Source: an uncultured Candidatus Saccharibacteria bacterium (lineage in GTDB: Bacteria; Patescibacteriota; Doudnabacteria; UBA920; 2-01-FULL-46-14). From it: DNA of 64,000 nt. The position numbers were made by a program, and so were the translations under genes. Under the pieces are notes generated by a model. It was not told where the DNA came from and searched no databases. It worked only from the letters and a program-made list of their open reading frames with translations. The DNA lies in assembly GCA_964396685.1 (NCBI GenBank), contig CAYNFS010000001.1:16638-80637 (forward strand), read 5' to 3'. Shown here in pieces: positions 1,841-48,716 of this stretch (positions are counted from its first letter, which is position 1; each line of letters starts with the position of its first letter).

Positions 1841-1920
1841 TCTGCTTCGCGTTTCTTCAGACCATTCATCCACGGGTTTACACTCGTTATATTCTGGTGA
1901 CGGGGTAAACCCCAAAAGAA

Positions 1921-1948
1921 TTTTTGATTTTTGATTTTTGATTTTTGA
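1921..1948. repeat. heptanucleotide tandem repeat (tttttga)x4 between PilC stop and pilin start
   Basis: Four perfect 7-mer units read directly from the sequence. Lies 9 nt after the pilC stop, in the putative pilin promoter/5' region (or in the N-terminal extension if ATG 1960 is used). Confidence 0.9.
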
Positions 1949-1956
1949 TATTTTTA

Positions 1957-3171: not shown

Positions 3172-3172
3172 T

Positions 3173-10016: not shown

Positions 10017-10949
10017 TTATGAAAAGGCACTAATCTTATATTTATCCATTACCTGACGCACTAGCTCCAAAGTCAATTCATCGACAATCTGGGCGAGCTT
10101 GTCCGTGAGATTATTCTTCCAATCTCCAACGATGCCCTTGCGGTAATGACTGCCGATTGACTGCTCACCCGGGCGCCGGGGTCTGCCGCCCGAATCAACC
10201 TCTGTCAAACGCTCGAACGAGGCTTCGTTAATCATGTTTTGAATAATCTCGTCACTGTATTTGACTCCCAAATAATCCAGCAGACTCTTTACCGCCTTTC
10301 TGGGATGCTGGTGCAATGCTTCATAAGTCAGACAGTGTATCCCTCCCTCATAAGCCAATAACGATCGAAATTCGGGCTGAATTGTGCCGCGACAATACTC
10401 CTCCACAAACCCGTCTCTAATCGGCTCCTCGGGCGATTTGCGTCCCTTTCGGATGAGATTGAAATGCCAGGAAACCACGACGTCTTTCGGATCGCGGAAA
10501 ATGCAAATCTTTTTTATGTTCGGATAAAAACTATCAATGAAGTCAAGGTGAAAAACATACAGAGGCGTGTCTTCCCCGACCAGCAGTTTGTTTCCCCTCA
10601 TCTTTTCGCACAACTCTTCGTACCTTGCCAAAAAATTTCTATAAACTTCTTCTCGAGGCAGCCGGTCTTTGAGGGGAACCAAGTCAGCAAAGATGCCGTG
10701 CACTTGCGTCAGAAAATTTTCCATCGGCCTGGTAAAAGATTTATCAACGTCGGGTTCAAGACTGGCAAGCGTGTTAAATAAGTGGACCTCGCCGATTCGT
10801 TTCATATCGGACTCTGGATTTTCCGAACGAAAAGGAAGCGCAGGAAAACAGGCAATCTCGGGATGAGAGTTCAAAAGGGCTGAAACCCAGTGGGTTCCGC
10901 TGCGCTGCATGCCGACAATGAGGAAATCTGGTTTGTGCTTTCGCTTCAT
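10017..10949 (-). CDS. sulfotransferase family protein (PAPS-dependent)
   Basis: 5'-PSB-like loop at the N-terminus (FLIVGMQRSGTHWV) and overall Sulfotransfer_1/3-like layout. PAPS synthesis and PAP recycling genes are in the same cluster. Confidence 0.7.
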   Translation of the reverse strand: MKRKHKPDFLIVGMQRSGTHWVSALLNSHPEIACFPALPFRSENPESDMKRIGEVHLFNTLASLEPDVDKSFTRPMENFLTQVHGIFADLVPLKDRLPREEVYRNFLARYEELCEKMRGNKLLVGEDTPLYVFHLDFIDSFYPNIKKICIFRDPKDVVVSWHFNLIRKGRKSPEEPIRDGFVEEYCRGTIQPEFRSLLAYEGGIHCLTYEALHQHPRKAVKSLLDYLGVKYSDEIIQNMINEASFERLTEVDSGGRPRRPGEQSIGSHYRKGIVGDWKNNLTDKLAQIVDELTLELVRQVMDKYKISAFS

Positions 10950-10954
10950 AAAAT

Positions 10955-12019
10955 TTACTCAATCGTGATTACTCGCCCCTTTTCGCGTGATAAATGGGCA
11001 GCCTGAATAACCTTCATAGTATCGAGTCCCCGCTGAAACGATATAGGGCTGTCTTCTGCCTTGATTTTCCCTTCCAAAATCTCCCGGATATGCAAAATCT
11101 CTTCGTAGAAATCATCCGGTCTTGTCTTCTCAATTCTGACTTCGCTCGTAGGCTGTCCCACTCGCCCGAAACGCAACAAATCCCCTTTGTCCCAGCCGTT
11201 TATTAAAATCTCCGCAAAACCCTCTTCACACTGTATTCGCAGCCATTTTTTGTCTGGCTTTGCAATCACGTCCTGGGCGACGCGACCGACAAATCCATCC
11301 TCCGTCGTCAAATTCAAAAAACAAGATTGGTCGTAATCAACCTTGTCGTTTCTCACCATCTGCATCGCCGCAGAGACTTGCCTGACCTTCCCGAATCCCA
11401 AAAAGTGAGCAAAATGCTGCCAAAGATTGGCGGCGTGCGAGTGTTCACCGGAAGCGCCGCCACCTTTCTTCCAAAATCCCAAATAAGTATCATGCGGTCC
11501 GGCAAGCCAAGGGTGAACCGCAAAAATCCCCTGCCAATTCTGGCGAAACTCCACATCCAACGCCTGCGGTCTGCCAAACGGCCTATCCGACAGAACCTCC
11601 TCGGCTTTTTTGACCACCCTGCTCACCGCATGATCATATCCCACAACCACAGCGGTTCGACTCTTTTTAAGTTTTTTTTGAAACTCCGCTACGCCTTCAA
11701 GCGAAGGCGGGCACAAGGGTTTTTCCAGCAACAAAACTTTGGGGTCTTCGTCGAGAACGAAATCTGCCAAGGACATACGAACGTGCGGCGGAGTTCCCAG
11801 CATAATCACTTCAAAACCCCCTTTTGGCTCTTCGCCGAATTTATAAAGCTCGATACTTTCGTCCCAACTACCGTAGCGATTGGGATAAATTTCCTCTCGC
11901 ATCCGCCGCAATGCGCTCTTGTCGGGGTCCACCACCGTAACACCCCACCCCTCCCGTCTCGCCGCTTGCGCCAAATGATTGCCGATCGACCCAGCGCCGT
12001 AGATTTTTGCCTTAATCAT
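10955..12019 (-). CDS. Gfo/Idh/MocA family NAD(P)-dependent oxidoreductase
   Basis: N-terminal Rossmann motif IYGAGSIGNHLA and GFOR-type fold length. Confidence 0.8.
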   Translation of the reverse strand: MIKAKIYGAGSIGNHLAQAARREGWGVTVVDPDKSALRRMREEIYPNRYGSWDESIELYKFGEEPKGGFEVIMLGTPPHVRMSLADFVLDEDPKVLLLEKPLCPPSLEGVAEFQKKLKKSRTAVVVGYDHAVSRVVKKAEEVLSDRPFGRPQALDVEFRQNWQGIFAVHPWLAGPHDTYLGFWKKGGGASGEHSHAANLWQHFAHFLGFGKVRQVSAAMQMVRNDKVDYDQSCFLNLTTEDGFVGRVAQDVIAKPDKKWLRIQCEEGFAEILINGWDKGDLLRFGRVGQPTSEVRIEKTRPDDFYEEILHIREILEGKIKAEDSPISFQRGLDTMKVIQAAHLSREKGRVITIE

Positions 12020-12660
12020 AGACTTTTTATTTTCGCCAAAGTTAATTGCTTGAATCCGTCAATAACCAAGTCTGCTTTGCCCAGGCGGTCCCGGCCGGTG
12101 GTAAAAGTTACAGCGATGCATTTCATCCCTGCCCTTTTAGCCGCTTTGACACCGACCTCGCTGTCTTCCACCACAACACATTCTTCCGGACTTATTTTTA
12201 ACTGCGAGGCGCTTTTCAAATATATGCCGGGGTCAGGCTTCTTTTTTTCAATATCTTCCTGCGTCAAGACTAAATCAAAGTATTTCTCCAAATCAAAACG
12301 CTTGAGAATTATTGCAGTCGAGCGGCGGTCGGAACTGGTAGCCAAACCCAGACGCTCACCCTCCCCGTGGAGCTTTTCAAGCAATTCGGCGGCATCAGAA
12401 AATATCCCGAAAGGCACTTCGTCCAAGATCCGGTAATAAGCCTCTCTTTTTTCGCGGATAATCTCTGCCACGTCGCCGTTAAATCCGTATTTTTTCAGAA
12501 AAAATTCAACAGCCGGGATTTCGTGCTTTCCCAAACGCTCTGGATCGTCTTGCAAAATGACATCGAAACGGTTTTTGAATACCTCCTGATAGGCCTGAAA
12601 CTTCAGCGGTTCGGTATCTACCAATACGCCATCCATATCAAAAATTACTGCCCGAATCAT
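12016..12660 (-). CDS. HAD-IA family hydrolase / sugar-phosphate phosphatase (candidate nonulosonate-9-phosphate phosphatase)
   Basis: Motif I VIFDMDGVLVDTE, motif II and motif IV (VVVEDSEVG). Overlaps the stop of the NeuB-like gene. Confidence 0.8.
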   Translation of the reverse strand: MIRAVIFDMDGVLVDTEPLKFQAYQEVFKNRFDVILQDDPERLGKHEIPAVEFFLKKYGFNGDVAEIIREKREAYYRILDEVPFGIFSDAAELLEKLHGEGERLGLATSSDRRSTAIILKRFDLEKYFDLVLTQEDIEKKKPDPGIYLKSASQLKISPEECVVVEDSEVGVKAAKRAGMKCIAVTFTTGRDRLGKADLVIDGFKQLTLAKIKSL

Positions 12661-14234
12661 AATAGTTCGATGGTTAGTTTTTGTTTTTCATCCAAGTCAT
12701 CAAACTGATGCCGGCCCCAGTTGATAAGCGACGTCTTTCGTTCTGCCAGTGGTTCTTTGTTAATATCCTTATCTGCATAAAACGAATCATTGTGCCAATG
12801 GGTTGTGGAGATTTCTTCGAAAATCGCTCCCTCGGGCGCGAAAAAACCGTGCCACACGCCACGGGGAATAAGCAGAGTATCGCCTGGATAAACCATGCGC
12901 GTGCGCCCTTCGATCTCCGCGTGCAAAACGCCGCTTAACACCTGAAACGTCTCTTCTTTTTTCTTATGATAATGAATGGGGTGAGCCTGCCCGGGAAGCA
13001 TGACGATGATTTTCTTGCAGTACTCACGATTAATGCATTCGATCAAAAACGCCCCGACTTCAAAAAATTTCTCCAGACCGTAATGATGCGACAATTCCAC
13101 GTTAGAGTCGTAATTTACGAAGATACGAGCGCTGTTGAGCATGCCCTTAACCTCGCGAATTGCCCGATAGACAGTATCCTTTTTGGAAAAATTGCGGGAC
13201 TGCAAACCTGCGGAGAGCGGCTCTAGCGCGGCGTAGTCGCGATCGACCACCAAATCTTCTTGCCATTCCCCGCTTTTCAGTTGGCCGGGCTGCAAAGGTA
13301 GGGCGAAGAAAACGTCGGGACGCAAAATGGCGGCCCCTTGTCTTAAAAACCGGCTCGCGTAAACCCCCCGCTGGAACTGACGCAAACTCTTCTCCTCTTC
13401 CACGGAATCGGAAAATGTTGACGTCTCTGGCCGGCCAGCCATGCTTACGGCCTGCTGATAGGCGACGAGCCAGTTTCTTATTTGTTCGGGGCGCGAGGAA
13501 TAGGCGTTGAGTTTTACGCTCTCCAACTCTACTCCAATGTGTCTTTCAAAAATTCTGGCTCCTTTGGAGAAAGCAATCTTTATCGCGTCCACATTGTTTG
13601 GATCCTCATGGGTTGAAAATCCTACGGTTAACTGCGGATAACGGTTTTTCAAAACGGCAATGCGCTCCAAATTCAATTTGTCGCTTGGTGTGGGATAAAT
13701 CGAAACGCAGTGCTCTAAAGCGAACTCCGTGCCCCGGTGTTCAAAAAAACTGACAATTTTATCAACCTCGTTGATTGACAGCCCCGCCGTGGAGCAAATA
13801 ACCGGTTTCCCAGTCTCCGCTATTTTCTCCAAAAGCGGCCAATCAGTTGCGCCACTGCTTGCCACCTTAATCACTTCTATTCCAAGTTTTTCCAAAAGTT
13901 CCACCGACTGTTCGTCGGAAGGTGTTGCCATAGTGACCAGCCCCGCCTCCTTGATGTCTCTGACCAAAATCGCGTAGTGCTCGGGACGAAGTCTGTTGGC
14001 CAAAAAATATGAAATATATTGATATTCGGAATTTCGCCTGTGGTACGGATGAATCAAGGCCTCAAGATCTCGGAACTGAAACTTAATCGCTGCTCTGACC
14101 CCGGCTTCCTTCGCCACCCATGCAAACTCGCGCACAATCAAACGCCCCAATTCCAAACTCCCCTTGTGGTTGTTGGCCATGTCAAAAATAAACAGGCCGT
14201 CAAACTCAAATGATTTTTTCTTTAGAGGAAACAT
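12657..14234 (-). CDS. NeuB-family nonulosonic acid (sialic-acid-like) synthase with SAF domain and extra C-terminal cupin domain
   Basis: NeuB TIM-barrel signature (FDMANNHKGSLELG...AIKFQ), an SAF-like segment, and a C-terminal cupin (PIHYHKKKEETFQVLSG...GDTLLIPRGVWHGF). At 525 aa it is much longer than canonical NeuB. Confidence 0.75.
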   Translation of the reverse strand: MFPLKKKSFEFDGLFIFDMANNHKGSLELGRLIVREFAWVAKEAGVRAAIKFQFRDLEALIHPYHRRNSEYQYISYFLANRLRPEHYAILVRDIKEAGLVTMATPSDEQSVELLEKLGIEVIKVASSGATDWPLLEKIAETGKPVICSTAGLSINEVDKIVSFFEHRGTEFALEHCVSIYPTPSDKLNLERIAVLKNRYPQLTVGFSTHEDPNNVDAIKIAFSKGARIFERHIGVELESVKLNAYSSRPEQIRNWLVAYQQAVSMAGRPETSTFSDSVEEEKSLRQFQRGVYASRFLRQGAAILRPDVFFALPLQPGQLKSGEWQEDLVVDRDYAALEPLSAGLQSRNFSKKDTVYRAIREVKGMLNSARIFVNYDSNVELSHHYGLEKFFEVGAFLIECINREYCKKIIVMLPGQAHPIHYHKKKEETFQVLSGVLHAEIEGRTRMVYPGDTLLIPRGVWHGFFAPEGAIFEEISTTHWHNDSFYADKDINKEPLAERKTSLINWGRHQFDDLDEKQKLTIELL

Positions 14235-14275
14235 AGCTCATCTTATTAAATCAACTTCTCATTCTAACAATATGT

Positions 14276-15025
14276 TCAACGCAAGTCAAGCCTGCGCTTA
14301 AGCAATATTTCAGCCAACAGAAAATCGATCTCGTTGTCAAGATTTACTGAATCCTCTGACTTCATATAAAAATAGGCTATTTTCTCCCCTGAGGTTGATT
14401 TCAGTTTGCGGATAGTCCTAAGCCACATCACATCCATTGCTCCCGTGTGAATATAAACTTCGGGGAGCGCTTGTCTCGACGAGTTGTAAGGTTCCTTCAT
14501 CTTCGTAAAATCCCGAGGCAAAAACGGCTGGAGCCATTGGCCGTCCTTCGATATCTTCCACATTTTGTAAGGATGCTTCGGCGACTCAATAATCGGGCGA
14601 ACAGAATGAGCACCCGGAGTGTCAATGAGTTTCTGAATTCCTTCATCAATATGCGCTGCCGTGCGCAGGGGCGAAGTCGGCGGCAGGCGCAAAACGATGT
14701 CCGGTTCGTAATTCTCCTTTGCTTTGAGCCAATCCAAAGCATGCCGTAAAAACTCCTCTCCCAAAGAAAGATCCCCGGAAATATCTGCCGGACGCAGAAA
14801 AGGAACCTCGGCTCCGTAACGCCTCGCTACGTCGGCAATTTCCTCGCTGTCCGTGGAAACAATCGTGCGCGTTAAGAGTTTCGATTTTTTTGCCTCCTCA
14901 ATGGTCCATGCAATAAGCGGTTTCCCCAAAAGCGGTTTGATGTTCTTTTTGGGTATAGATTTTGACCCTTCTCTGGCACCAATGACCGCCAGGGCTTCAT
15001 ACGACTTGTTGGCTGACTTTGGCAT
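14276..15025 (-). CDS. acylneuraminate (CMP-nonulosonate) cytidylyltransferase family protein
   Basis: CTP_transf_3 N-terminal motif (LAVIGAREGSKSIPKKNIKPLLGKPLIAW). Confidence 0.8.
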   Translation of the reverse strand: MPKSANKSYEALAVIGAREGSKSIPKKNIKPLLGKPLIAWTIEEAKKSKLLTRTIVSTDSEEIADVARRYGAEVPFLRPADISGDLSLGEEFLRHALDWLKAKENYEPDIVLRLPPTSPLRTAAHIDEGIQKLIDTPGAHSVRPIIESPKHPYKMWKISKDGQWLQPFLPRDFTKMKEPYNSSRQALPEVYIHTGAMDVMWLRTIRKLKSTSGEKIAYFYMKSEDSVNLDNEIDFLLAEILLKRRLDLR

Positions 15026-15034
15026 ATCGGCTCC

Positions 15035-15793
15035 TTATTCGTGCATTAACAACTTAATTCTGCGAAAACGATAAGCGAAAAAATTTCTCACAGTTTGCCA
15101 TTCAACTACTTCCCAGAACAAATAATTCAGCAATCTTAATAGACGGGAAGCACTCGGATGACATTGTATCAAAACTCCCCCGTTTAAAACCTCCCCTTGA
15201 TACTGCGTATCGGCATGGCGCTCAAGTGAATAGCCGTACTTTCCGGCCAGGGCCTTGCGAGCCCAATTTCGCTGGATGTGCCGGTGTCCTTCGATATAAA
15301 CAAACCTGACGCTTTTTAAATAACAAAGGTAATGCCAAACGGCATCATTGAACCCGTGACTTGGATCGTCCTCTCCCTTTCTGGCTTGTCCGCCGTCGAC
15401 TACCACCAAATCATACTCTCGCAACGGGGGAAGCATTCGGTAATCTTTGAGAATTTGAAACCGGCCACTAAACTCTTTGAGGTTTTCCGCGAGCTTTTCC
15501 GCAAAATACTGGTCATGCTCATATACGTCCAGTTTGGCTTGCGAATGTTTGAGCACCAAGTAGCTGATGGTCCCCAAACCTCCGCCGAGTTCCAAGACAC
15601 GCTCTGGGTGCTGCTTGCGGCAAAGCTCTAATAAAACGTGCAAAGTTGCGGGTTTGGCGATATGTTCGGAACGCGGAAACTGTCTAAACCGCTCGTATAC
15701 CGCGATGGCTTCTGGGTCAAAGTCAATCAACTTAATTTTTCGAATTGGCATGGGCAAACTCCCTAATGGTATTGATAATTTCCGCCTCCGCAC
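15035..15793 (-). CDS. class I SAM-dependent methyltransferase
   Basis: Motif I VLELGGGLGTISY. Start probably at an internal Met. Confidence 0.55.
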   Translation of the reverse strand: MRRRKLSIPLGSLPMPIRKIKLIDFDPEAIAVYERFRQFPRSEHIAKPATLHVLLELCRKQHPERVLELGGGLGTISYLVLKHSQAKLDVYEHDQYFAEKLAENLKEFSGRFQILKDYRMLPPLREYDLVVVDGGQARKGEDDPSHGFNDAVWHYLCYLKSVRFVYIEGHRHIQRNWARKALAGKYGYSLERHADTQYQGEVLNGGVLIQCHPSASRLLRLLNYLFWEVVEWQTVRNFFAYRFRRIKLLMHE

Positions 15794-17096
15794 GAATACT
15801 GGCTTGACCGTCAGGCGTATGAATCAAATATGTCAGAAACTCATCGCGGCGTTGTTTATCAGTTTGAATAAAATGCCGCTCTGGATTATCCAAAAGTTTT
15901 TCCAGCTCCCGTTCGGTCTTGGCATAAGAAACCAGCTCTGGATAGTGGGTAAAATAATCCCAAGGTTTTGCCGGAATCAAATCGCCGAAATAAGGAGAAA
16001 TTACCAATCGATTGGCCAGGAGTCCTTCGATTAAAGTTGTGGAAAGGTAACCCAAAACCGCAAAAGACGATTCAATGCACTCCCGAGGACTCGGGGCGCT
16101 GGTGATGGTGAGGTTTGGGATCGAGCGGCTAAAATTTTCGCGCTTAATCTTCTGAACATAGTCGAGATAAAAGCCTGCGGCTTTGGTTTTTATCACCACG
16201 CTGATCTCGGGATGTTTGAGGGCATAGTTCATTACCCAGAGATGGAAGTCTTCCGCTCGTCTCTCCCCCAGCTTAATCGTTTCCGGATCGGAAACAAAAC
16301 GCGGCAGACGATGCTTGACATAAAAAGAGAAAAGCACAATTTGCTTCGTTGGAGTCGACCCGCGGGTCTGAAAATAATAATCCAACCGCGGCACGCCGAC
16401 TATTTTTATCTGCTCTTTTGCCAAACCTTTGACTTTGCCGAGCAACGCTCCCAGAATCTTTTCGTTATAGGCCAAAAATTTGTGGCCGACGAACCGCCGA
16501 TTGACATACATGTCCTCCGCCCCTTCAAAAATACCCGCCGACAAGCCTTCTTTATGCAAAACCAGAAAAGGAATATTATCCTCCACACAAACTTTGGCCA
16601 GCTCCTGCTGAACAAGATAACCAAAATTTCCGGAAATGACTGCGTCGATTTTTAAATATCTGCGCAGATACGGAAACATCTTTTTAAGATACAGATAATA
16701 ACGCCGTTTCCCCTCTCGGCCGTGATCGGTGATATGGTAATTTGCTTCGGTCCATCCGGCTCTTTCATCATGATGCGTAAAGTGTTTATAAATAATCGCC
16801 CAGTAACTTTTGTGAACAGAAACATAATTAAGCTTGCCGCTAAACTCGGCCATGGCGCTGATGTCATCGTAAAAAATGCTTCGTCCTAAAACCAAAGCCG
16901 TGTAGTGACTGCCCCGGTCGATTTTTCCGGAAATCAAAGCCAGTACGGCAGCGGTCAGGCGGGGACTGTGAACATAAACACTGCCCTTGATCAGCAGCGG
17001 AAAAAACACCGCTCTCAATTTTACGATAATTTTTCTGCCAAGATCATTTGTCATATTCGATTCCAAAATCGGGCAATCCGAAACAGCGCTGCCCAA
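15732..17096 (-). CDS. large GT-B-like hypothetical protein, paralog 1 (possibly Capsule_synth/KpsS-KpsC-like or TagF-like transferase)
   Basis: Shares architecture and length (about 450-500 aa) with ORFs 25487..26998 and 36774..38201. No classical GT2/GT4 motifs. Confidence 0.4.
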   Translation of the reverse strand: MGSAVSDCPILESNMTNDLGRKIIVKLRAVFFPLLIKGSVYVHSPRLTAAVLALISGKIDRGSHYTALVLGRSIFYDDISAMAEFSGKLNYVSVHKSYWAIIYKHFTHHDERAGWTEANYHITDHGREGKRRYYLYLKKMFPYLRRYLKIDAVISGNFGYLVQQELAKVCVEDNIPFLVLHKEGLSAGIFEGAEDMYVNRRFVGHKFLAYNEKILGALLGKVKGLAKEQIKIVGVPRLDYYFQTRGSTPTKQIVLFSFYVKHRLPRFVSDPETIKLGERRAEDFHLWVMNYALKHPEISVVIKTKAAGFYLDYVQKIKRENFSRSIPNLTITSAPSPRECIESSFAVLGYLSTTLIEGLLANRLVISPYFGDLIPAKPWDYFTHYPELVSYAKTERELEKLLDNPERHFIQTDKQRRDEFLTYLIHTPDGQASIRAEAEIINTIREFAHANSKN

Positions 17097-17857
17097 TAAT
17101 ATCTCGAAAGTCTTTGAAAACGGTTGCCGGCCTCAAGGCTGTATTTCGCGATTTTCCACCGGTTGAAAAAATACTGTTCATGGTTCATTAAGAAACGGTA
17201 CTTGTGGGTAAACTGAAAGACTCCTTCCGCCAATGTCGCTTGATTGGTCAGCCTTTTGCCTTCCTGCGTCCCGTCAATTACCATATTGGCGGGAAGGACC
17301 GCGACTTCCTTCCCGAGGCGCAAAACCTCCAACACCAAGGCTTTATCCTCGGACGGCGGCAGTTTGGGATCATAACCTCGAACATGAAAGAATAGATCTT
17401 TGGAAATAACGATATTCGGTCCGCCGGCTCCTGGATTTGACACCAAAAGCACCTCCATCTTCACCCGACCCGTTGGGATTTTCCAAGGCAAAAGTTTGCC
17501 GTCTTTTTCTATATACACTCCGCTTAAAACGCATTCGGCGCCCTTCTCCAATTCTCTTGAAACATTTTCGAGATATTTCTCATTCCACTGGTTGTCATCG
17601 TCCAAAAAGGCGAGGTACTCACCCTTCGCTACGTATGCTCCGAAATTCCTCGCTTGCGCCGCACCGGCATAAGGCATGATCTCAAGAACCTTAACCCTAC
17701 TGCCAATCTCTTCCAAAAGCTCAACTTTGCCCCGGCCGTTGTTAACCACAATAATTTCGTGCGGCTGATATGTTTGCTTTAAGACAGTGCTAATAGCTCT
17801 CAAAAGCAACTCAGGCCGGTCGCAGGTTGGAATAATACAGCTGATCATTAGATTCAT
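17051..17857 (-). CDS. glycosyltransferase family 2
   Basis: N-terminal GT-A motif (CIIPTCDRPELLLRAISTVLKQTY...) and DxD-type acidic residues. Confidence 0.8.
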   Translation of the reverse strand: MNLMISCIIPTCDRPELLLRAISTVLKQTYQPHEIIVVNNGRGKVELLEEIGSRVKVLEIMPYAGAAQARNFGAYVAKGEYLAFLDDDNQWNEKYLENVSRELEKGAECVLSGVYIEKDGKLLPWKIPTGRVKMEVLLVSNPGAGGPNIVISKDLFFHVRGYDPKLPPSEDKALVLEVLRLGKEVAVLPANMVIDGTQEGKRLTNQATLAEGVFQFTHKYRFLMNHEQYFFNRWKIAKYSLEAGNRFQRLSRYYWAALFRIARFWNRI

Positions 17858-17885
17858 ACCTACCCCATTGCTGTCCAGTTGGACT

Positions 17886-18695
17886 TTAATTCATAAAAGC
17901 ATGTTGCATTATAAAAGCCTTGCTGGCGCTACCCGGAAGCGAAAATATTTCAAGAACGCTAAATCCGTTTTCCTCTGCCGTTTTAATCATCATTTCTTCA
18001 TTTTGCCATCTTGTATTGACAGCAAATATAAGTTTAGCTTGTCTGTATCTTTCCGGTAACTCCCTAAGAGCCCGCACTATCAATTCTCTTCCGGTTGGTC
18101 CGCCATCGGCCGGACGGCCAAAAAGAACTTTTTCCTTAACTGCTGCACTCGGTACGTAAGGAGGATTCCAGGTGATATAATCTGGTTTTTCTGGTAATTT
18201 ATCACTATCGGAAAAAGGGTGATAAATATCAGAATGTATAAATCTCACATTGGCTTTATTAGCTTTAGCCGTTATTTTACTGCTAGCAATATATGGTTTA
18301 TGTATCTCTAAAACAGTCACCGGCATATTCTTTTCGATACTTAAGACGCAAGCTTCGGTCGCAAAGGGCCCAGATCCTATCGCCAATACAGTACTTGTGG
18401 GGTCAATGTATTTAAGCATCGCGGCCATAAGTACCGGCGTGGAATTATCCCACGCACCTTGTCCTTTCAAATCTGGGTCCAAAAAGGGATTTATATCTAA
18501 TCCGAATACTGCTTTTGCAAATGACGCGGAATGGCGCATCCGGGTTATATCTGCCGTAAAACCAAACTTGCTATAAAAATTGCTAAGTTGTGCCGCAAAG
18601 ATTTTTAGACACTCTTCCCTGTTGCGACCTTTTTTTACAGCATTCAAAATAATCTTGAAAGGCGCTTCCTCTTCCTTAATGGAACGGTAAATCAT
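17886..18695 (-). CDS. class I SAM-dependent methyltransferase with NPPY motif (HemK/PrmC-like amino-N methyltransferase fold)
   Basis: Motif I AIGSGPFATEA and catalytic tetrapeptide NPPY (ITWNPPYVPS). Confidence 0.6.
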   Translation of the reverse strand: MIYRSIKEEEAPFKIILNAVKKGRNREECLKIFAAQLSNFYSKFGFTADITRMRHSASFAKAVFGLDINPFLDPDLKGQGAWDNSTPVLMAAMLKYIDPTSTVLAIGSGPFATEACVLSIEKNMPVTVLEIHKPYIASSKITAKANKANVRFIHSDIYHPFSDSDKLPEKPDYITWNPPYVPSAAVKEKVLFGRPADGGPTGRELIVRALRELPERYRQAKLIFAVNTRWQNEEMMIKTAEENGFSVLEIFSLPGSASKAFIMQHAFMN

Positions 18696-18724
18696 CTATA
18701 TCTTCTCCTTAATTAAGTTTAGAA

Positions 18725-20482
18725 TCATTTACGGTGTTTGTTTATCAAATAGCGGCCAATGGCCAGTGCATCCAAACCCGTTGCCCAAAAAGTGCGCAGT
18801 GCATCCTGGATGGAACAGACAATCGGCTCGCCTTTCACATTAAAGGAAGTATTAAGTAGCACAGGAACTCCGGTTTTGCTCTCAAACGTTTTCAGCAGCC
18901 TATGATACAGCGGATTTACGTCCTCTCTTACGGTCTGAACGCGCGCGGTCCCGTCTATGTGCACGATCCCTGGCGCCTCTTTTTTCAATCGGTCATTGGC
19001 GAGAAACGCGAGATTCATAAACGGCGCCTCACAGAATTTATCAAAATAGCGATCCATAGCTTCCAACGGTAGAGACGGACAAAACGGCCGCCAATATTCG
19101 CGGAATTTCACCACGGCATTGACTTTGTCGCGATTTTTCACGTCCCTTGGGTCAGCCAAAATACTTCTCTGCCCAAGCGCCCTGGGTCCCGCTTCCATGC
19201 GGCCCTGAAACCAGGCGACCATACGGCCCGCTGCAAGAGCGCTGGCAACCGGCTTGCAAATGTCATCAAATTTTTCGTACGGAACATGCGTCATTTTCAG
19301 AACCTCCTCTATTTCCTCATCAGAAAATTCCGGCCCCAGGGCCAAGCTTTCCAATTTTTCCGGCCTGGCCCCAGTTTCCTGAAAAGAAGCCGCCAGAGCG
19401 ACGCCAGCCGCTGTGCCCGCATCATTGCATAAAGGATGAGCAAAGATCCGCCCCACTTCCGGCAGTAGAAAAATCGCACTATTCATTTTGATGTTGTGAG
19501 CAATTCCGCCCCCGACGCAGACATTCTGAATTCCCGTTTCCGAAATTGCCCAAAGCGCCAGACGGTTTACCGCTTCCTCTAATTTTTTTTGCACGGCAAA
19601 AGCGAGATTCTCGTGCCAAGCGGTAATCCCCTCGTCAGGCAAACGGGGGTTTTTCCCAAGAAGAACTATCAATTCGTCAGTAAAACGGCCTGAAAAAGAA
19701 TGCTTGCCGTAATGAATGTAGCGCGGATCAAGGCGGTATTCGATTCCATCTTCAGCCTGGCGAATCACCTGGTTAAGCTTGGACGTGAAATCCTCGTCTA
19801 AGCCGCCGTACGCCGACAATCCCATAACTTTGTATTCTCCGTCTTTGGAGCGAAATCCTAAAAATTCCGTAATAGCCGAATACAGCCAACCTAGGGAATG
19901 AGGCATGAGAATTTCCCGCATCGGCTTGATTTCATCTCCCTCGCAGCGCCACACCACGGCGCAGTGCTTGTCACCGGAACCATCTATAGTAAGACAAACA
20001 GCTTCATTAAAACCGGATTGCATGTAGGAATGAAAGGCGTGAGTATAATGATGCGGCATGTGAATGATTGGCGGCATTTTGATGTCGCCAAAAACCTTAC
20101 GCCAGTTCTTGTAATGGATATTTTCCATGCCTTCAAAGTTATGTCCGGAAATCATATAATTCTGCCAAGCTTTGGTTTGATTGTCCACCGGCCATGTTTT
20201 GGCCATCTCATCAAAAAATTTTCTCATAGTCCCGTCAGAATAGGCTTTGACGTTCCATGCTACTCCCACCCCGGCTATATCTTGCATTGATATACCTGCA
20301 CGTTTGAGGCAATATTTCAAAGCTCTGATCGGGTATATCCCGACCCCGTGCTTGTGGCGAATAAAGCGTTCTTCTTCGGCCAGGCCCAAGACTTTTCCAT
20401 CCCTGACTACGGCCACCGACGGATCCACCGGCTCAGCATTTATGCCAAGATAAATTTGTGACTTTTTTTCCATGTTCATCAA
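18725..20482 (-). CDS. carbamoyltransferase (NodU/CmcH/NovN family), full length
   Basis: Carbam_trans_N (ASKHA/Kae1-like) and C-terminal carbamoyl-phosphate-binding domain. Length 585 aa. Confidence 0.85.
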   Translation of the reverse strand: MMNMEKKSQIYLGINAEPVDPSVAVVRDGKVLGLAEEERFIRHKHGVGIYPIRALKYCLKRAGISMQDIAGVGVAWNVKAYSDGTMRKFFDEMAKTWPVDNQTKAWQNYMISGHNFEGMENIHYKNWRKVFGDIKMPPIIHMPHHYTHAFHSYMQSGFNEAVCLTIDGSGDKHCAVVWRCEGDEIKPMREILMPHSLGWLYSAITEFLGFRSKDGEYKVMGLSAYGGLDEDFTSKLNQVIRQAEDGIEYRLDPRYIHYGKHSFSGRFTDELIVLLGKNPRLPDEGITAWHENLAFAVQKKLEEAVNRLALWAISETGIQNVCVGGGIAHNIKMNSAIFLLPEVGRIFAHPLCNDAGTAAGVALAASFQETGARPEKLESLALGPEFSDEEIEEVLKMTHVPYEKFDDICKPVASALAAGRMVAWFQGRMEAGPRALGQRSILADPRDVKNRDKVNAVVKFREYWRPFCPSLPLEAMDRYFDKFCEAPFMNLAFLANDRLKKEAPGIVHIDGTARVQTVREDVNPLYHRLLKTFESKTGVPVLLNTSFNVKGEPIVCSIQDALRTFWATGLDALAIGRYLINKHRK

Positions 20483-21282
20483 TGCAAGCTTTTATAAATT
20501 TTTAGCACCTCGTCATGGATCTTGCTGTTACTCATCAAAACTCCATCCCGATGATAAAGATCCTCTGTGTTATAGACAAACTCCCGTCCCCAAAGATCAG
20601 TAATCCTGCCACCCGCCTCGGAAATCAAGCAATGAGCCGCGGCCGTATCCCACTGTTTCATCTTGTCTGTGGTCGCCAAATACAATTCTACTGTTCCAGC
20701 CGCCACCAACCCAGCCTTTAGTCCGGCGCTGCCCTGCGAAACGTATTCCCGAACGTTCAATTCGCGGGCCAGGCGCTTGTCTAATTCGGACAAATGATGC
20801 CGGCTCACAACTGCCTTTGCCTGCGAAAGCTGATCCACCAAGCTTACCCAAAGTTTTTGCCATTCACCGTTCTGGTTAAGATAAGCTCCCTCCCCTTTTT
20901 GTGCCGCATAATATCGGCCCGTGGCTGGCTGATATATGACCCCCAAAACCGGAGTACCTGCCTCAACCAAGGCGATCATCACACTAAACTCGCCGGTTTT
21001 GCCTATGAAATCCATGGTGCCGTCCAAAGGATCAACAATCCAAATCCGCTGTGCTTGCACTCTCGCGAGATCATCTTCCTGTTCCTCGGAAAGGATTGGT
21101 AGACCGGAGGAACGCAAAAATTTACTTATCGTATCCTGACTAGCACGGTCAGCAACAGTAACCTCCTCGCGATCCTGTTTGAATTCGGTCTCGAATTCAT
21201 AATGGTAAATGGCCATGATCTTGCTCCCGGCCGCTCTGGCGGCATCAATCGCCAACTTGGTTTCGTTCCAAAAATTCATCAT
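20479..21282 (-). CDS. inositol monophosphatase family protein, CysQ-like 3'(2'),5'-bisphosphate nucleotidase
   Basis: IMPase signature WIVDPLDGT and second metal-binding motif. Immediately downstream of the PAPS-synthase fusion. Confidence 0.75.
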   Translation of the reverse strand: MMNFWNETKLAIDAARAAGSKIMAIYHYEFETEFKQDREEVTVADRASQDTISKFLRSSGLPILSEEQEDDLARVQAQRIWIVDPLDGTMDFIGKTGEFSVMIALVEAGTPVLGVIYQPATGRYYAAQKGEGAYLNQNGEWQKLWVSLVDQLSQAKAVVSRHHLSELDKRLARELNVREYVSQGSAGLKAGLVAAGTVELYLATTDKMKQWDTAAAHCLISEAGGRITDLWGREFVYNTEDLYHRDGVLMSNSKIHDEVLKIYKSLH

Positions 21283-24035
21283 ATCAGCCCCTCGCTTTTA
21301 AGAAATTCCCAAACCTTCTGAACGCTTTGCTCAATGCTTTCACGGTTCGTGCTGATTGTGACATCCGGGTTTTGCGGGATCTCATAAGGATTTGATTCTG
21401 AAAAGCCGATAAGGTTTTTGAGTTGGCCGGCTTTTGCCTGCTGGTACAAACCCTTAGTATCGCGCTTCATGCATTCCTCCAAGGGGCAGTCGGCATACAC
21501 CAGAAAAAAGCTGCCCCCTACTATTTCGCGAACCATCTGCCGATCCGCCTCATATGGCGAAATAACCGGCACGAGCACAAAATCATGCTTTTCTCTTTCC
21601 TCCCGGGCCAGCCGGGCAATCAACTCGTTGTTTTTACGGATGTCCTCGCGGGAAAAACCCAAATTTTTGTGCAAAATCGCCCTGATTTCATCGCCATCCA
21701 GCATTTTCACTTGGTGCCCGAAACGCGAAAGTTCTTGTTTTAATCCTTCAGCCACAGCGGTTTTACCCGAACCGGAAAGTCCCGTAAACCAAAGCACGTG
21801 CCCGGCCGGGGCGGCGCTTGGATGTTTGACAAAAACTTCTTCGCCCCGTTTGATCGCTTCAACTATCATTTGGGAAATTTCCGGGCGCATAAACCATTCG
21901 GGTGGGGCCTCCCCCTTTTCAAACGTTTTTCTGGCTTCGGTGCCGCTGATATGAAGCTTGTCCTCTTCTGAATGCTCGATGCTGTCCATCTCATGGACAT
22001 GGGACTGCATTTTTTTGGAATAAAAAACCTGGTCAAACCGAATGGGAACAATGCCCAAATCAGGAAACTTGTCAAAAATCTCGTGGCTGGCCTTGGGGTG
22101 ATAAAAATCACCGACTCCGGTATGGTCGCGCCCCACGACGAAATGGCTGCAGCCGAAATTTTGCCGGCAAATGGCAGTAAACAGCGCCTCGCGCGGCCCA
22201 GCGTATCGAGAATAAGTAGCAAAAGTTCCCAGCACCACGCTGTCTTTGGGATAAAATTTTTGCATCATCATTTCATAAGCGCCGATGATGTATTTGGCGT
22301 GAAAATCCCCGGCCTTTTTCTTGCCGACGACCGGATGCACAAAAAGTCCGTCAGCGGAAGCTTGATCCATCGCCGCGAGCTGAATAAATTCGTGGGAGCG
22401 ATGAATGACGTTTCGGGTATGAAATCCAACGACCCTCTGCCAGCCGCGCTCGGAAAAAAGCCGTCTTGCTTGCCGCGGCGTCAACTCATACTCCTTGGCT
22501 TCGGAAGGCCGGCGGCGGATGAGATCAATTTTTCCGCCTAGAAACCAAGGCTCAAGCTGTTTGACATGCCGAACTCCCGGATGCTCCTCGTTTTGCGTGC
22601 CATACAGCTTTTGCGCCATTTCGTCCAAATCAAAGCGATACTTATCCTCGACATGTAAAAGAGCCGCCGGCTGATCCGACTCGTCAACGAGAACCACCAC
22701 ATCGCCGACATTAAGGGTGTTGGATTTTTCCTCGGAAACATTCAAAGTGATCGGCAGAGGCCAGATGACGCCGTTTGGCAGACGCATGGAATCCAAAACA
22801 CTGGCCAGTTCCTGGCGGCTCATAAATCCTTCTAAGGGACTGAAAGTGCCAATGGCAATTTGCTCCAAATCCATGTGAATTTCCTGGGATATGGAAATGC
22901 TCGCAAGTTTTCTAAAATCAATGCTCGGCATTTCCACTAATACGCGGTTGACCAATTTTCCTCCGTGGGGCGGCACCAATCCGCTGCTTCGATGCTGGAG
23001 CATAGAAGACGCTTTGGGAAAAGTGCCGGGATTGAGCATGGCTTCGGCCTCGGAAATGAGTTTTAGCATCATGTTCACGCTTTTGATCGGATATTTTCCG
23101 ATCGCGGTTTCCGCGGACAGCACTACGCCATAGGCTCCATCCAAAATAGTGCTCACCACATCATTGGCCTCGGCTCTCGTGGGACGCTTATTTTTTACCA
23201 TCGATTCCAAAAAGTTAGTGGCCACAAAAACCCCTTTGCCGAATTTCTTGGCCTGCCCTATGACGTGCTTTTGCAAAAAGGGAAGCTTTTCAATTGGCGC
23301 CTCTTTGCTCAAATCGCCCCGGTCCAAAAGCAGATAATCAGACGCTTTTATGATCCCCTCAAGGTTGTTCAGGGCGTCCGCGCATTCGATCTTGGAAATT
23401 ATTTTCATTTTCCCCATGCATGCCCTTCGTACTTCTTCCACAAAAGAAGCGGAACGCATGAAAGAAGCGGCAATCATATCTATTCCCTGGCTTAAACCGA
23501 GCTTGATGGATTCATAATCTTTGGATGTGAGAGCGGGCAAATCAAACTTCTTGGGAAATCCGGGATCCACAACAACGGCTTTGTTGCGGCCAACAATCCC
23601 GGCGCTTATCGCACGCGCTCTAATAAATCCTTGGGGCACAGTGGAAATATCAGTAACTCGCAAAATGGCCGTGTCAAAATCCACGTGCAACAGATCCCCT
23701 TTCAGGAGCTGGGAGAGAATGTAAGCGGGTTTCAAGGCGATTGTTCCGGGCCCGCCGATTTTGGGATAAGCACAAATTTTTACTTCTTCGTTTTCATCAA
23801 GATAAATCTGCTCATCAGAAAGTTCTCCGGTTCTGATTTGCGATCCCTCGGTGTCAAGAATAAACGGGATGCCGACTTTTTTTGCAAGGGCGATGAAATA
23901 TTCCAAATCGGCAATCGTGGAGTGGGACATGTTGATCCGCACGAAATCAACCCCGCGCGTTTTAATCATGCGCAAATCGGCTTCGCTTCTAGTCGCGGGT
24001 CCTAGAGTGACTATTAATTTTACTTGTTTATCCAT
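21279..24035 (-). CDS. tri-domain fusion: pyruvate-kinase-like barrel (N) + sulfate adenylyltransferase/ATP sulfurylase (middle) + adenylylsulfate (APS) kinase (C), i.e. a PAPS synthase with an N-terminal PK-like domain
   Basis: PK core motifs (LDTEGSQIRTG, DRGDLSKE, TNFLESM, PTRAEANDV, VLSAETA). Sat motifs (PPHGG, GFHTRNVIHRSHEFIQ, VHPVVGKKKAGD, GRDHTGVG). CysC P-loop WFTGLSGSGKTAVA. A single 918-aa ORF with no internal stop. Confidence 0.85.
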   Translation of the reverse strand: MDKQVKLIVTLGPATRSEADLRMIKTRGVDFVRINMSHSTIADLEYFIALAKKVGIPFILDTEGSQIRTGELSDEQIYLDENEEVKICAYPKIGGPGTIALKPAYILSQLLKGDLLHVDFDTAILRVTDISTVPQGFIRARAISAGIVGRNKAVVVDPGFPKKFDLPALTSKDYESIKLGLSQGIDMIAASFMRSASFVEEVRRACMGKMKIISKIECADALNNLEGIIKASDYLLLDRGDLSKEAPIEKLPFLQKHVIGQAKKFGKGVFVATNFLESMVKNKRPTRAEANDVVSTILDGAYGVVLSAETAIGKYPIKSVNMMLKLISEAEAMLNPGTFPKASSMLQHRSSGLVPPHGGKLVNRVLVEMPSIDFRKLASISISQEIHMDLEQIAIGTFSPLEGFMSRQELASVLDSMRLPNGVIWPLPITLNVSEEKSNTLNVGDVVVLVDESDQPAALLHVEDKYRFDLDEMAQKLYGTQNEEHPGVRHVKQLEPWFLGGKIDLIRRRPSEAKEYELTPRQARRLFSERGWQRVVGFHTRNVIHRSHEFIQLAAMDQASADGLFVHPVVGKKKAGDFHAKYIIGAYEMMMQKFYPKDSVVLGTFATYSRYAGPREALFTAICRQNFGCSHFVVGRDHTGVGDFYHPKASHEIFDKFPDLGIVPIRFDQVFYSKKMQSHVHEMDSIEHSEEDKLHISGTEARKTFEKGEAPPEWFMRPEISQMIVEAIKRGEEVFVKHPSAAPAGHVLWFTGLSGSGKTAVAEGLKQELSRFGHQVKMLDGDEIRAILHKNLGFSREDIRKNNELIARLAREEREKHDFVLVPVISPYEADRQMVREIVGGSFFLVYADCPLEECMKRDTKGLYQQAKAGQLKNLIGFSESNPYEIPQNPDVTISTNRESIEQSVQKVWEFLKSEGLI

Positions 24036-48709: not shown

Positions 48710-48716
48710 AGATATT

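Follow-up and report, generated by a model that had tools for sequence, protein, structure and literature searches.

In the CysDN/NodPQ system, an extra nucleotide or energy module is set on sulfate adenylylation against its unfavourable equilibrium, with the coupling provided by GTP hydrolysis within the complex; fusion with APS kinase is common in this system (CysNC/NodQ), which serves in glycan (Nod factor) sulfation. In algal fusions of APS kinase, Sat, and pyrophosphatase, a helper that removes a by-product pulls the pathway. The bifunctional ATP sulfurylase/APS kinase of A. aeolicus (2gks; NF004040) yields PAPS with a PUA-Sat-APS kinase arrangement, and eukaryotic PAPS synthases are also multi-domain proteins, with the order APSK-Sat. 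PAPS synthesis by human PAPSS1 in vitro needed ATP regeneration by pyruvate kinase (PK) and phosphoenolpyruvate (PEP), the reason being that APS kinase is trapped in a dead-end complex with ADP and APS (PMC9885120).

The 64,000-nucleotide stretch of DNA analysed here (the window) encodes a 918-aa protein in which a PK domain precedes the ATP sulfurylase (Sat) and APS kinase domains. Domain order and PAPS-yielding chemistry are shared with the A. aeolicus enzyme, which ranks first in the PDB for residues 375-918 (368 bits, approximately 35% identity), but 2gks has no PK domain and its sulfate-site motif is FQTRN where the window protein has FHTRN. Eukaryotic PAPS synthases differ in domain order and are not known to have a PK domain, and the same holds for the algal fusions, whose helper clears PPi and not ADP. 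CysDN/NodPQ follows the same logic with unrelated proteins, CysD being a PP-loop enzyme and CysN a GTPase, and the coupling in the PK fusion would instead run through the ATP/ADP pool and PEP. Canonical PKs (E. coli PykF, M. tuberculosis PykA 5wrp, and PKM2) have the A and B domains and the catalytic, metal, PEP, and ADP residues in common with the fusion; unlike them, the window protein is fused to Sat, lacks the C domain, carries a Q66/S243/N274 signature, and is found in a sulfation rather than a glycolytic context. The set of activities is identical to that of engineered PK/PEP regeneration for PAPS synthesis (Sat, APS kinase, PK, and PEP), which is meant to clear ADP and so keep the dead-end APS kinase-ADP-APS complex from forming (PMC9885120). 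The engineered system is an in vitro mix of separate enzymes, whereas the PK fusion is natural, genetically joined, and phylogenetically widespread.

Architecture of the fusion protein

The ORF is unbroken and encodes four domains in the order PK barrel, PUA_2, ATP sulfurylase, and APS kinase, all with Pfam scores far over the cut-offs (Table 1). This agrees with the initial annotation of the DNA, which had described an uninterrupted 918-aa ORF with PK, ATP sulfurylase, and APS kinase regions and whose quoted motifs are all present. An AF2 model of the whole protein (pLDDT 87.3, pTM 0.73) contains a single long stretch with pLDDT below 50, the linker that follows the PK domain.

Table 1. Features of the sulfation and glycan locus, with positions in the window
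Feature	Position	Strand	Evidence
PAPS-dependent sulfotransferase (predicted)	10017..10949	-	Sulfotransfer_1, 105.4 bits, E 4e-30
Glycan genes between PAPS module and sulfotransferase	10955..17857	-	Pfam and NCBIfam
O-carbamoyltransferase, NodU/CmcH family	18725..20482	-	Carbam_trans_N and Carbam_trans_C
CysQ-like 3'(2'),5'-bisphosphate nucleotidase (PAP phosphatase)	20479..21282	-	Inositol_P, 177.9 bits; WIVDPLDGT and WDTAA motifs
PK-fused PAPS synthase, 918 aa	21279..24035	-	Pfam and NCBIfam matches, AF2 model
APS kinase domain, aa 745-894	21354..21803	-	PF01583, 159.8 bits; P-loop GLSGSGKT
ATP sulfurylase catalytic domain, aa 515-726	21858..22493	-	PF01747, 262.8 bits; FHTRN..HxxH and GRDHTGVG motifs
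PUA_2, N-terminal domain of ATP sulfurylase, aa 355-507	22515..22973	-	PF14306, 154.7 bits
Flexible linker, PK to PUA_2/Sat, ~aa 335-350	22986..23033	-	AF2 pLDDT <50
PK A (TIM barrel) and B (lid) domains, aa 3-320	23076..24029	-	PF00224, 233.5 bits
Nonulosonate synthase	28452-29567		PseI, 414 bits, over 340-bit cut-off

The reading that separate pyk and sat-cysC genes were joined by an assembly or frameshift artefact is refuted. Over 99-100% of its length, the 918-aa protein is colinear with more than 120 database proteins of independent assemblies (52-73% identity), and in a scan of species-representative genomes, in which the best 80 loci were kept of up to 383 candidates, PK and Sat form one ORF in 80/80. 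No frameshift was found in the long ORF, nor any point in favour of the artefact reading. The database annotation of the relatives is automatic and names them either "sulfate adenylyltransferase" or "pyruvate kinase".

The pyruvate kinase domain

The N-terminal domain aligns with the full length of PF00224 (profile positions 2-328 of 328). The pyruvate kinase model TIGR01064 matches at 281.4 bits, below its 306.4 cut-off, and only over model positions 1-347 of 476; PK_C, the C-terminal alpha/beta domain with allosteric and tetramer-forming roles, had no Pfam match in the 918-aa protein, and this allosteric C domain is missing throughout the PK fusions. The best matches in a PDB sequence search are the PKs of M. 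tuberculosis and G. stearothermophilus (E about 1e-51). In the AF2 model, the secondary structure is that of a barrel with a beta-rich lid (aa 76-157), and Foldseek superimposes the domain on PKM2 over approximately 350 columns at approximately 3 A rmsd and 34% identity.

Conservation was assessed at the equivalents of rabbit PK R72, N74, S76, D112, R119, K269, E271, D295, T327, and E363. Across 85 fused and 32 stand-alone relatives, no variation occurs at R33, N35, S37, H38, D61, R68, K215, E217, D241, E289, D292, or E309, and T273 is almost fixed (T, rarely S). These positions serve PEP, K+, Mg2+, and ADP as well as catalysis; retention of the K+-, Mg2+-, and PEP-binding residues had been named in the initial annotation as a point to check. 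The catalytic residues among them include K215, the Mg2+ ligands E217 and D241, and the proton-relay T273. We infer from this pattern that the domain is a catalytically competent PK core (A + B). The subfamily has its own signature of Q66 (aligned with E117 of rabbit PK, close to the K+ site), S243, and N274, and a neighbour-joining (NJ) tree did not resolve it as a clade.

These signature residues could alter catalysis, and the PK-like domain might serve, rather than as an enzyme, as a sensor or scaffold, where binding of PEP, ADP, or ATP gates Sat, or as a platform for oligomerisation, by analogy with the APS-kinase-like allosteric domain of fungal ATP sulfurylase. Degenerate partner domains of this kind do occur among the structural matches, in P. 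chrysogenum ATP sulfurylase (1i2d) and in the APS kinase of T. denitrificans with its inactive Sat-like domain (3cr8). Such domains, however, normally lose the catalytic residues, and here K215, E217, D241, and (with rare S) T273 are kept in addition to the binding residues, which makes a purely regulatory or structural role unlikely.

The sulfurylase and APS kinase domains

The Sat region scores 360.5 bits against TIGR00339 (cut-off 322.95) and 436.3 against NF003166 (cut-off 387), its closest structures being 2gks and M. thermolithotrophicus Sat (8a8d), and the RN, H545xxH548, and GRDHTGVG motifs are all seen. In the FHTRN motif, H replaces the canonical sulfate-contacting Q of QTRN, a lineage-wide change present in 166/167 relatives. 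The APS kinase model TIGR00455 matches at 176.8 bits (cut-off 138.7), and the bifunctional Sat/CysC equivalog NF004040 at 445.3 bits, below its cut-off of 669. Judged by sequence, this part of the protein is a divergent lineage of Sat/CysC with an unchanged domain order and one domain extra.

Distribution and gene neighbourhoods

The initial annotation had treated the fusion as an unfamiliar architecture. Our literature search found no paper on a PK-Sat-APS kinase protein, but rare it is not: the architecture is uncharacterised yet widespread in uncultured bacteria and archaea, with at least 80 species-level genomes among up to 383 candidates. Hosts of the 80 loci belong to the CPR/Patescibacteria, DPANN archaea, Chloroflexota, Acidobacteriota, and Planctomycetota, together with two cultured Flavobacterium-group strains. 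Sulfotransferase genes are within 10 kb in 48/80 loci (34/45 where both flanks are full), and in 26 of those 48 the distance is about 130 bp or less; CysQ genes neighbour the fusion in 26/80.

With its catalytic residues intact, the PK domain might be an ordinary glycolytic pyruvate kinase that is merely fused to Sat, for instance in reduced CPR or DPANN genomes, and has no part in sulfate activation. Many of the hosts are CPR or DPANN with minimal genomes, and JGI labels several members just "pyruvate kinase". The fusion is also found, however, in a 10.4-Mb Ardenticatenaceae genome, a 5.8-Mb Acidobacteriota genome, and Flavobacterium, hosts in which it is unlikely to serve as the housekeeping PK. 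The loss of the regulatory C domain in every fusion and the TIGR01064 score under the equivalog cut-off also speak against a glycolytic enzyme, and the loci sit in glycan or NRPS clusters with sulfotransferases and not beside glycolysis genes. Unfused relatives that lack the C domain point the same way: 5 of the 6 stand-alone PKs looked up adjoin PAPS-pathway genes, the contig of the sixth being too short. One is encoded with separate Sat and APSK genes (L084), one with APSK (L085), one at four genes' distance from Sat-APSK (L083), and two next to a sulfotransferase (L082, L086). We consider a glycolytic role improbable.

APS kinase accompanies PK-Sat in 59/80 loci: 29 have it fused, 21 have it adjacent, and in 9 it is elsewhere within 10 kb. 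It is absent within 10 kb in 14 full-flank PK-Sat loci, some of which (L032, L060) nevertheless have CysQ directly downstream. Together with the distinct signature residues, these loci would fit a PK domain with a changed substrate that passes phosphate from PEP straight to APS (an isostere of ADP) or to some other nucleotide and replaces APS kinase in the PK-Sat forms of approximately 750 aa. Where APS kinase is part of the protein, however, the PK signature and catalytic residues are no different, and the two activities are therefore not redundant. PK chemistry moreover acts on a terminal phosphate oxygen and not on a ribose 3'-OH, and APS kinase may be encoded elsewhere in those genomes. 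A changed substrate is very unlikely.

The sulfation and glycan cluster

The genes for the fusion, CysQ, and the sulfotransferase are co-directional within one glycan cluster. The CysQ-like ORF, whose start overlaps the fusion stop codon by 4 nt, has CysQ (TIGR01331) as its top NCBIfam match at 196.6 bits, below the 228.8 cut-off. Genomic context supports the CysQ assignment made earlier: elsewhere CysQ is fused to APS kinase (L013, L023, L041, and L075) or to the whole synthase, as PK-Sat-APSK-CysQ in one ORF (L021). The O-carbamoyltransferase gene is translationally coupled to that of CysQ and is kept at the syntenic locus L001.

The sulfotransferase, the only one in the window, had been placed about 11 kb away on the same strand; all of these genes lie on the minus strand, and this one starts approximately 10.3 kb downstream of the fusion stop. 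Its assignment holds, with a 5'-PSB motif (GMQRSGTHW), a 3'-PB motif (FRDPKDVVVS), and RKGIVGDWKN (RKGxxGDWK), and an orthologue is present at L001. Between it and the PAPS module are genes, in partial synteny with L001, for a GT2, an unknown 454-aa protein, a CMP-sugar cytidylyltransferase, a NeuB-cupin fusion, a HAD phosphatase, and a GFO/IDH/MocA oxidoreductase, with two methyltransferase-like proteins nearby. The PseI match (Table 1) bears out the proposed nonulosonic-acid glycan setting, as do the second NeuB-cupin gene of the window and its two CMP-sugar cytidylyltransferases. The module had also been called complete, which applies to activation, transfer, and PAP removal only, because neither a sulfate importer nor a pyrophosphatase was found within the window.

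Two further proposals fared less well. A link through PEP between the PK domain and NeuB is weak, NeuB being a neighbour in only approximately 20/80 loci. A likeness to the Nod-factor decoration toolkit goes no further than functional analogy: the NodU model gives 134.7 bits (cut-off 1000) and NoeE 32.2 (cut-off 500), and NCBIfam matched no CysD/CysN-type (NodPQ) protein in the window, where sulfate activation is of the Sat type.

A proposed model for PEP-driven PAPS synthesis

We favour, with a probability of about 0.6, a reading in which the locus would be a self-sufficient source of PAPS for the sulfation of a cell-surface glycan and the PK core would regenerate ATP from PEP. The Sat domain would convert ATP and sulfate to APS and PPi, the APS kinase domain would convert APS and ATP to PAPS and ADP, and the PK core would return that ADP to ATP with PEP, releasing pyruvate, for a net conversion of sulfate, ATP, and PEP to PAPS, PPi, and pyruvate. 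The sulfotransferase would place the sulfate on a sugar, possibly an ulosonic acid whose synthesis is encoded next to it by the NeuB-cupin, HAD, and cytidylyltransferase genes, and CysQ would convert the inhibitory by-product PAP to AMP. With the PK step, APS would be removed in a strongly exergonic reaction whatever the cellular ATP/ADP ratio. The same step would also prevent the dead-end APS kinase-ADP-APS complex, relieving inhibition by ADP and APS, and therefore, we propose, pull the very unfavourable sulfurylase equilibrium forward.

The PK domain probably keeps PAPS synthesis supplied with ATP via PEP, as the initial annotation had suggested; comparative sequence evidence favours this in the near-invariant catalytic residues, in PK-APS kinase fusions that lack Sat (P0124 and P0194), and in the operons with split PK, Sat, and APSK genes. 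Also in its favour are the need for PK/PEP regeneration with human PAPSS1 in vitro, the sulfotransferase and CysQ neighbours, the stand-alone PKs beside PAPS-pathway genes, and the hosts with large genomes. Several observations count against ATP regeneration. The unvarying fusion is PK-Sat and not PK-APS kinase, and Sat itself yields no ADP; the 14 full-flank loci without a nearby APS kinase, the PK subfamily signature, the H for Q in the Sat motif, and the NJ tree result weigh in the same direction. The flexible linker of approximately 16 residues in the model offers no hint of channelling, and diffusion of small nucleotides is rapid, so the gain from physical fusion may be stoichiometric co-expression or portability and not local ATP. 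If ATP regeneration by the PK core is true, PEP/PK coupling would be a third solution beside GTPase coupling (CysN/NodQ) and pyrophosphatase coupling.

Domain architecture of the fusion protein

The open reading frame encoding the fusion is translated without interruption into a 918-aa protein that carries a pyruvate kinase (PK) barrel, a PUA_2 domain, an ATP sulfurylase (Sat) domain and an APS kinase (APSK) domain. The initial annotation had read PK, ATP sulfurylase and APS kinase from motifs; Pfam matches all three, including a PK-like N-terminal region, and Pfam, NCBIfam and motif comparisons together bear out that description of the fusion and its surrounding genes in all substantive details. 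Both the Sat part and the APS kinase part score above their NCBIfam equivalog-domain cut-offs; together they are related to the Aquifex-type bifunctional enzyme but divergent from it. The PK part reaches 281 bits against TIGR01064, below the 306-bit cut-off, because only positions 1–347 of the 476 in the model align, and PK_C, the C-terminal allosteric and tetramer domain of pyruvate kinase, has no Pfam match in the 918-aa protein. Judged by its fold and its catalytic residues this half is a pyruvate kinase, though for want of the C domain it falls short of the full-length family definition. NCBIfam holds no dedicated model for the whole PK-PUA_2-Sat-APSK architecture.

An AlphaFold2 model built on a 33-sequence alignment is confident (mean pLDDT 87.3, pTM 0.73), and its sole long disordered stretch lies between PK and PUA_2 (aa 335–350). 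In Foldseek comparisons with the PDB, the Sat part matches Sat from M. thermolithotrophicus at 2.1 Å and the PK part matches PKM2 at ~3 Å. No solved chain in this search accounts for more than ~40% of the model (TMq <=0.40), and the architecture is therefore without a solved structure.

Coordinates of the fusion, its domains and signatures, and other features in the window (nucleotides, unless marked aa) and in related loci (prefix L).
Feature	Location	Strand	Evidence or remark
Fusion	21279..24035	-	918 aa
PK barrel	aa 3-320 of fusion	-	Pfam 233.5 bits; profile 2-328 of 328, full length
PUA_2	aa 355-507 of fusion	-	Pfam
ATP-sulfurylase	aa 515-726 of fusion	-	Pfam 262.8 bits
APS_kinase	aa 745-894 of fusion	-	Pfam 159.8 bits
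DTEGSQIR for DTKGPEIR	23832-23855, aa 61-68	-	Q66 at position of rabbit PK E117
FHTRN in Sat domain	22410-22424, aa 538-542	-	FQTRN in characterised ATP sulfurylases
IMPase-family protein, CysQ best named match	20479..21282	-	Pfam, NCBIfam; 4-nt overlap with fusion's stop codon
Sulfotransfer_1 protein	10017..10949	-	Pfam; canonical 5'-PSB, 3'-PB and RKGxxGDWK motifs
NeuB-family synthase + C-terminal cupin	12657-14234	-	NeuB 127 bits vs 400, PseI 123 vs 340; far below equivalog cut-offs
Protein of 454 aa	15732-17096	-	no Pfam match; counterpart in L001, 432 bits
Wzy_C (O-antigen ligase / O-oligosaccharyltransferase family) + TPR repeats	876-7156	-	directly adjoins type IV pilus genes
Second carbamoyltransferase-like gene	44238-45308	-	N-terminal domain only
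PIN-domain gene + small upstream ORF	48284-48956	-	Pfam PIN_3
MNT-type nucleotidyltransferase, then HEPN/DUF86 protein	54296-54923	+	by eye: GSFARGE..SDLDV; RNKVVHEY
Two overlapping tandem short ORFs	57092-58712	-	263 and 279 aa
ORF of 1018 aa	60818-63874	-	no Pfam match
PK-Sat-APSK-CysQ four-domain ORF	L021:3-3230
APS kinase-CysQ fusions, both domain orders	L013:5652-7028; L023:12140-13516; L041:15042-16364; L075:12246-13580

Distribution of the fusion

Relatives of the fusion were sought among 5.8 billion proteins, and the matches listed include at least 120 proteins, all with PK, PUA_2 and Sat, at 52–73% identity and 80–100% coverage. They come from Patescibacteria/CPR MAGs and Nanoarchaeota and fall into two size classes, ~920 aa with APS kinase and ~750 aa without it. 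Scanning a single genome for each of 185,579 species gave 383 candidate relatives, an upper bound, one of the two search patterns falling in Sat alone. In the best 80 of these up to 383 candidates, the loci that were kept, PK and Sat always form one ORF (80/80). An artefact of frameshift or assembly joining pyk to sat-cysC was considered and rejected, given that at least 120 listed database relatives share the architecture and that all 80 kept loci encode it in a single ORF. The architecture was unfamiliar to the initial annotation; in public genomes it proves to be widespread.

Hosts include CPR lineages and Woese-, Pace- and Nanoarchaeia, as well as Chloroflexota (among them a 10.4-Mb Ardenticatenaceae contig), Acidobacteriota, Planctomycetota, NC10, Omnitrophota, Gemmatimonadota, Nitrospinia and Acidimicrobiia. 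Two hosts are cultured, Flavobacterium sp. Leaf82 and [Flexibacter] sp. ATCC 35103. The titles "uncultured Gammaproteobacteria" and "Methanosarcinales" on binchicken assemblies are apparently unreliable automatic labels and were not relied on. The closest relative among the kept loci (L001, 73% identity) is identical to a protein labelled Candidatus Doudnabacteria at NCBI, and its locus is partially syntenic with the window, the two having in common a Capsule_synth-like protein, carbamoyltransferase, GT2, the fusion, CysQ, an unknown protein, a methyltransferase-like protein, an oxidoreductase, a cytidylyltransferase, NeuB and a sulfotransferase. This relative, along with the type IV pilus and Wzy_C-TPR genes, points to a CPR bacterium as the most likely source of the window; the exact sequence of the window protein matched no record.

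A full-text search, whose coverage mostly leaves out subscription journals, found no publications on a PK-Sat-APSK fusion; its matches were PK/LDH-coupled assays or unrelated genome surveys. Copies of the architecture are widespread across sequence databases, where their annotation is automatic.

Pyruvate kinases without the C domain

The PK domain alone was searched against 1.84 billion cluster representatives and the best 150 matches were classed. These comprise 86 PK-Sat-type fusions (three of them also with APS kinase), 2 PK-APS kinase fusions without Sat (P0124 and P0194), ~32 stand-alone proteins of 325–360 aa consisting of the barrel only, and 16 canonical PKs of ~470–490 aa, which score lower. 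Of six stand-alone PKs whose contexts were looked up, 5 lie beside PAPS-pathway genes and the sixth is on a contig too short to inform. PK, Sat and APS kinase are consecutive genes on an archaeal contig (L084), PK is directly followed by APS kinase in L085, a Sat-APSK gene is found four genes from the PK in L083, and a sulfotransferase adjoins it in L082 and L086.

Across 85 fused and 32 stand-alone PK representatives, R33, N35, S37, H38, D61, R68, K215, E217, D241, E289, D292 and E309 are invariant, and T273 is nearly so (T, rarely S). These are the PEP-, K+-, Mg2+- and ADP-binding and catalytic residues, and the question raised in the initial annotation, whether the PEP, K+ and Mg2+ ligands are retained, can be answered in the affirmative. 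Fused and stand-alone C-domain-less forms also share a signature of Q66, S243 (RGDLS replacing RGDLG) and N274 (ATN replacing ATQ); Q66 stands at the position of E117 in rabbit PK, the residue governing K+ dependence. In a crude neighbor-joining tree of 141 PK domains, canonical PKs and those lacking the C domain do not fall into separate groups, and monophyly is not claimed; only nearest neighbors in this set were informative, and by that measure stand-alone domains are mostly closest to fused ones and canonical domains to canonical ones.

The Sat domain has a signature of its own, FHTRN, in which the Q of FQTRN, the residue contacting sulfate in characterised ATP sulfurylases, is replaced. 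This form (or HxRN) occurs in 166 of 167 relatives and also in the Sat of L084, which is unfused and adjoins a stand-alone PK. FHTRN looks like a lineage marker of Sat that co-occurs with the PK partner. The site was also noted in five loci (L045, L052, L055, L057 and L059) where PK-Sat is adjoined by a second protein with a Sat-like domain fused to APS kinase; these second proteins recall the APS kinase of T. denitrificans, whose Sat-like domain is inactive, and the one in L059 retains FQTRN.

A probable sulfation locus within a glycan cluster

The fusion is one of a long series of genes on the minus strand. The CysQ-like gene downstream is followed, again with a 4-nt overlap, by a carbamoyltransferase gene, and then by genes for a methyltransferase, a GT2 enzyme, a protein without a Pfam match, a CMP-sugar cytidylyltransferase, the NeuB-cupin fusion, a HAD phosphatase, a GFO/IDH/MocA oxidoreductase and the sulfotransferase (Pfam, NCBIfam). 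The last is the only sulfotransferase in the window, and its assignment in the initial annotation stands, both PAPS-binding motifs being present. This run belongs to a single large glycan cluster extending from ~8 kb to 59 kb of the window, with a true PseI (414 bits against a 340-bit cut-off), DegT and class-III aminotransferases, several GT4 and GT2 enzymes, KpsC/S-like Capsule_synth proteins, an ABC exporter, a PMT_2 protein and an initiating Bac_transf; on the flanks of the cluster are type IV pilus genes and a Wzy_C-TPR protein. The locus is very probably a PAPS supply and glycan sulfation module. The Nod-factor decoration toolkit, to which the initial annotation had likened these genes, is an analogy only; NCBIfam tests for membership in it were negative.

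Together with genes for a PseF-like cytidylyltransferase, a HAD phosphatase and a GFO/IDH/MocA oxidoreductase, the NeuB-cupin gene forms a group next to the sulfotransferase; the synthase may make an unusual ulosonic acid, itself the target of sulfation. The pilus genes next to the Wzy_C-TPR gene encode a PilB-like T2SSE protein, a PilC-like T2SSF protein and a protein with a pilin N-methylation motif, a setting that is a hint of possible glycan transfer to pilins or to other proteins of the surface. A similar Wzy_C-TPR gene lies beside the stand-alone PK of L082. The PIN-domain gene with its upstream ORF, and the nucleotidyltransferase-HEPN pair, which was judged by eye, are likely two toxin-antitoxin inserts that interrupt the glycan cluster. 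The tandem 263- and 279-aa ORFs match only the distal NAD-binding part and the central domain of UDP-glucose/GDP-mannose dehydrogenases and could be truncated duplicate paralogues or an unusual short form. Rfam and tRNA scans found no RNA genes in the window.

Similar surroundings recur in the best 80 loci. APS kinase is fused in 29, encoded at most 400 bp away in 21 and within 10 kb in 9; it was not found at 14 loci with full flanks and 7 with short ones. CysQ is a neighbor in 26 of the 80 by a single-round profile. With a profile built from two neighbor clusters and the window protein, a sulfotransferase was detected within 10 kb in 48 of the 80, or 34 of the 45 having at least 5 kb on each side, and in 26 loci it lies ~130 bp or less from the fusion. 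Frequent glycan neighbors are GDP-mannose dehydratase/epimerase (36 loci), DegT (25), GT4 (23), CTP_transf_3 (23), UDP-GlcNAc 2-epimerase (22), NeuB (20) and Wzx (16). The loci of the two cultured hosts (L070 and L071) have a different setting: over ~1–17.5 kb the tri-domain fusion and CysQ sit amid large NRPS genes (one C-A-T...TE protein of 2442 aa, another of at least 1296 aa) with a PLP enzyme alongside, and no glycan genes were found near the fusion, which suggests a sulfated non-ribosomal peptide product.

Proposed PEP-driven sulfate activation

Sulfate activation is among the thermodynamically most unfavourable steps of core metabolism; the equilibrium constant of ATP sulfurylase is ~1e-8, and the reaction depends on removal of APS and PPi. 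APS kinase, for its part, is inhibited via a dead-end enzyme-ADP-APS complex, because of which human PAPSS1 required ATP regeneration by PK and PEP for appreciable PAPS synthesis in vitro (PMC9885120). That mixture and the natural fusion combine identical activities, and it is on this basis that its PK domain is proposed to regenerate ATP, mirroring what enzymologists add. ADP from APS kinase would be returned to ATP at the expense of PEP, for a net reaction of sulfate + ATP + PEP -> PAPS + PPi + pyruvate, and CysQ would clear PAP once sulfate has been transferred. The coupling logic resembles that of CysN/NodQ GTPase coupling and of pyrophosphatase fusions.

The PK-APSK fusions without Sat and the adjacent PK and APSK genes are a specific fit to this proposal. 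It is weakened by the invariant covalent partner of PK being Sat, which is not an ADP producer, and by the loci with no APS kinase nearby. We put the probability of ATP regeneration by the PK domain at roughly 60%. The fusion may owe its selective advantage to stoichiometric co-expression and to being portable as a horizontally mobile module, and not to local channelling. There is also a broader reading, to which we give even odds: PEP-driven sulfate activation would be an unrecognised third energy coupling for PAPS, next to CysN GTPase and pyrophosphatase coupling. In it a dedicated subfamily of C-domain-less PKs, whether fused or not, would be obligatory to FHTRN-type Sat and APS kinase, and the module would have spread horizontally through CPR, DPANN and several other phyla, serving the sulfation of surface glycans and probably, in Flavobacterium, that of non-ribosomal peptides.

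Implications

A natural PK fusion of this kind would reveal a new way for cells to pay for sulfate activation. The culturable hosts of L070 and L071 offer a system in which the PEP-driven hypothesis is directly testable, and a single polypeptide that turns sulfate, PEP and catalytic ATP into PAPS would find direct use in enzymatic sulfation, for instance when heparin or chondroitin is synthesised.

Relatives of the fusion are named "pyruvate kinase" (JGI) or "sulfate adenylyltransferase" (NCBI), and such names can therefore inflate what is concluded for CPR and DPANN genomes about glycolysis or sulfur cycling; the architecture of genes so named should be checked before either is inferred. If the broader reading is true, part of the "pyruvate kinase" and "sat" signal in metabolic reconstructions of these groups would reflect glycan sulfation instead. 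The results obtained here imply that many CPR and DPANN organisms invest in sulfated, nonulosonate-rich surface glycans, which bears on episymbiotic host attachment.
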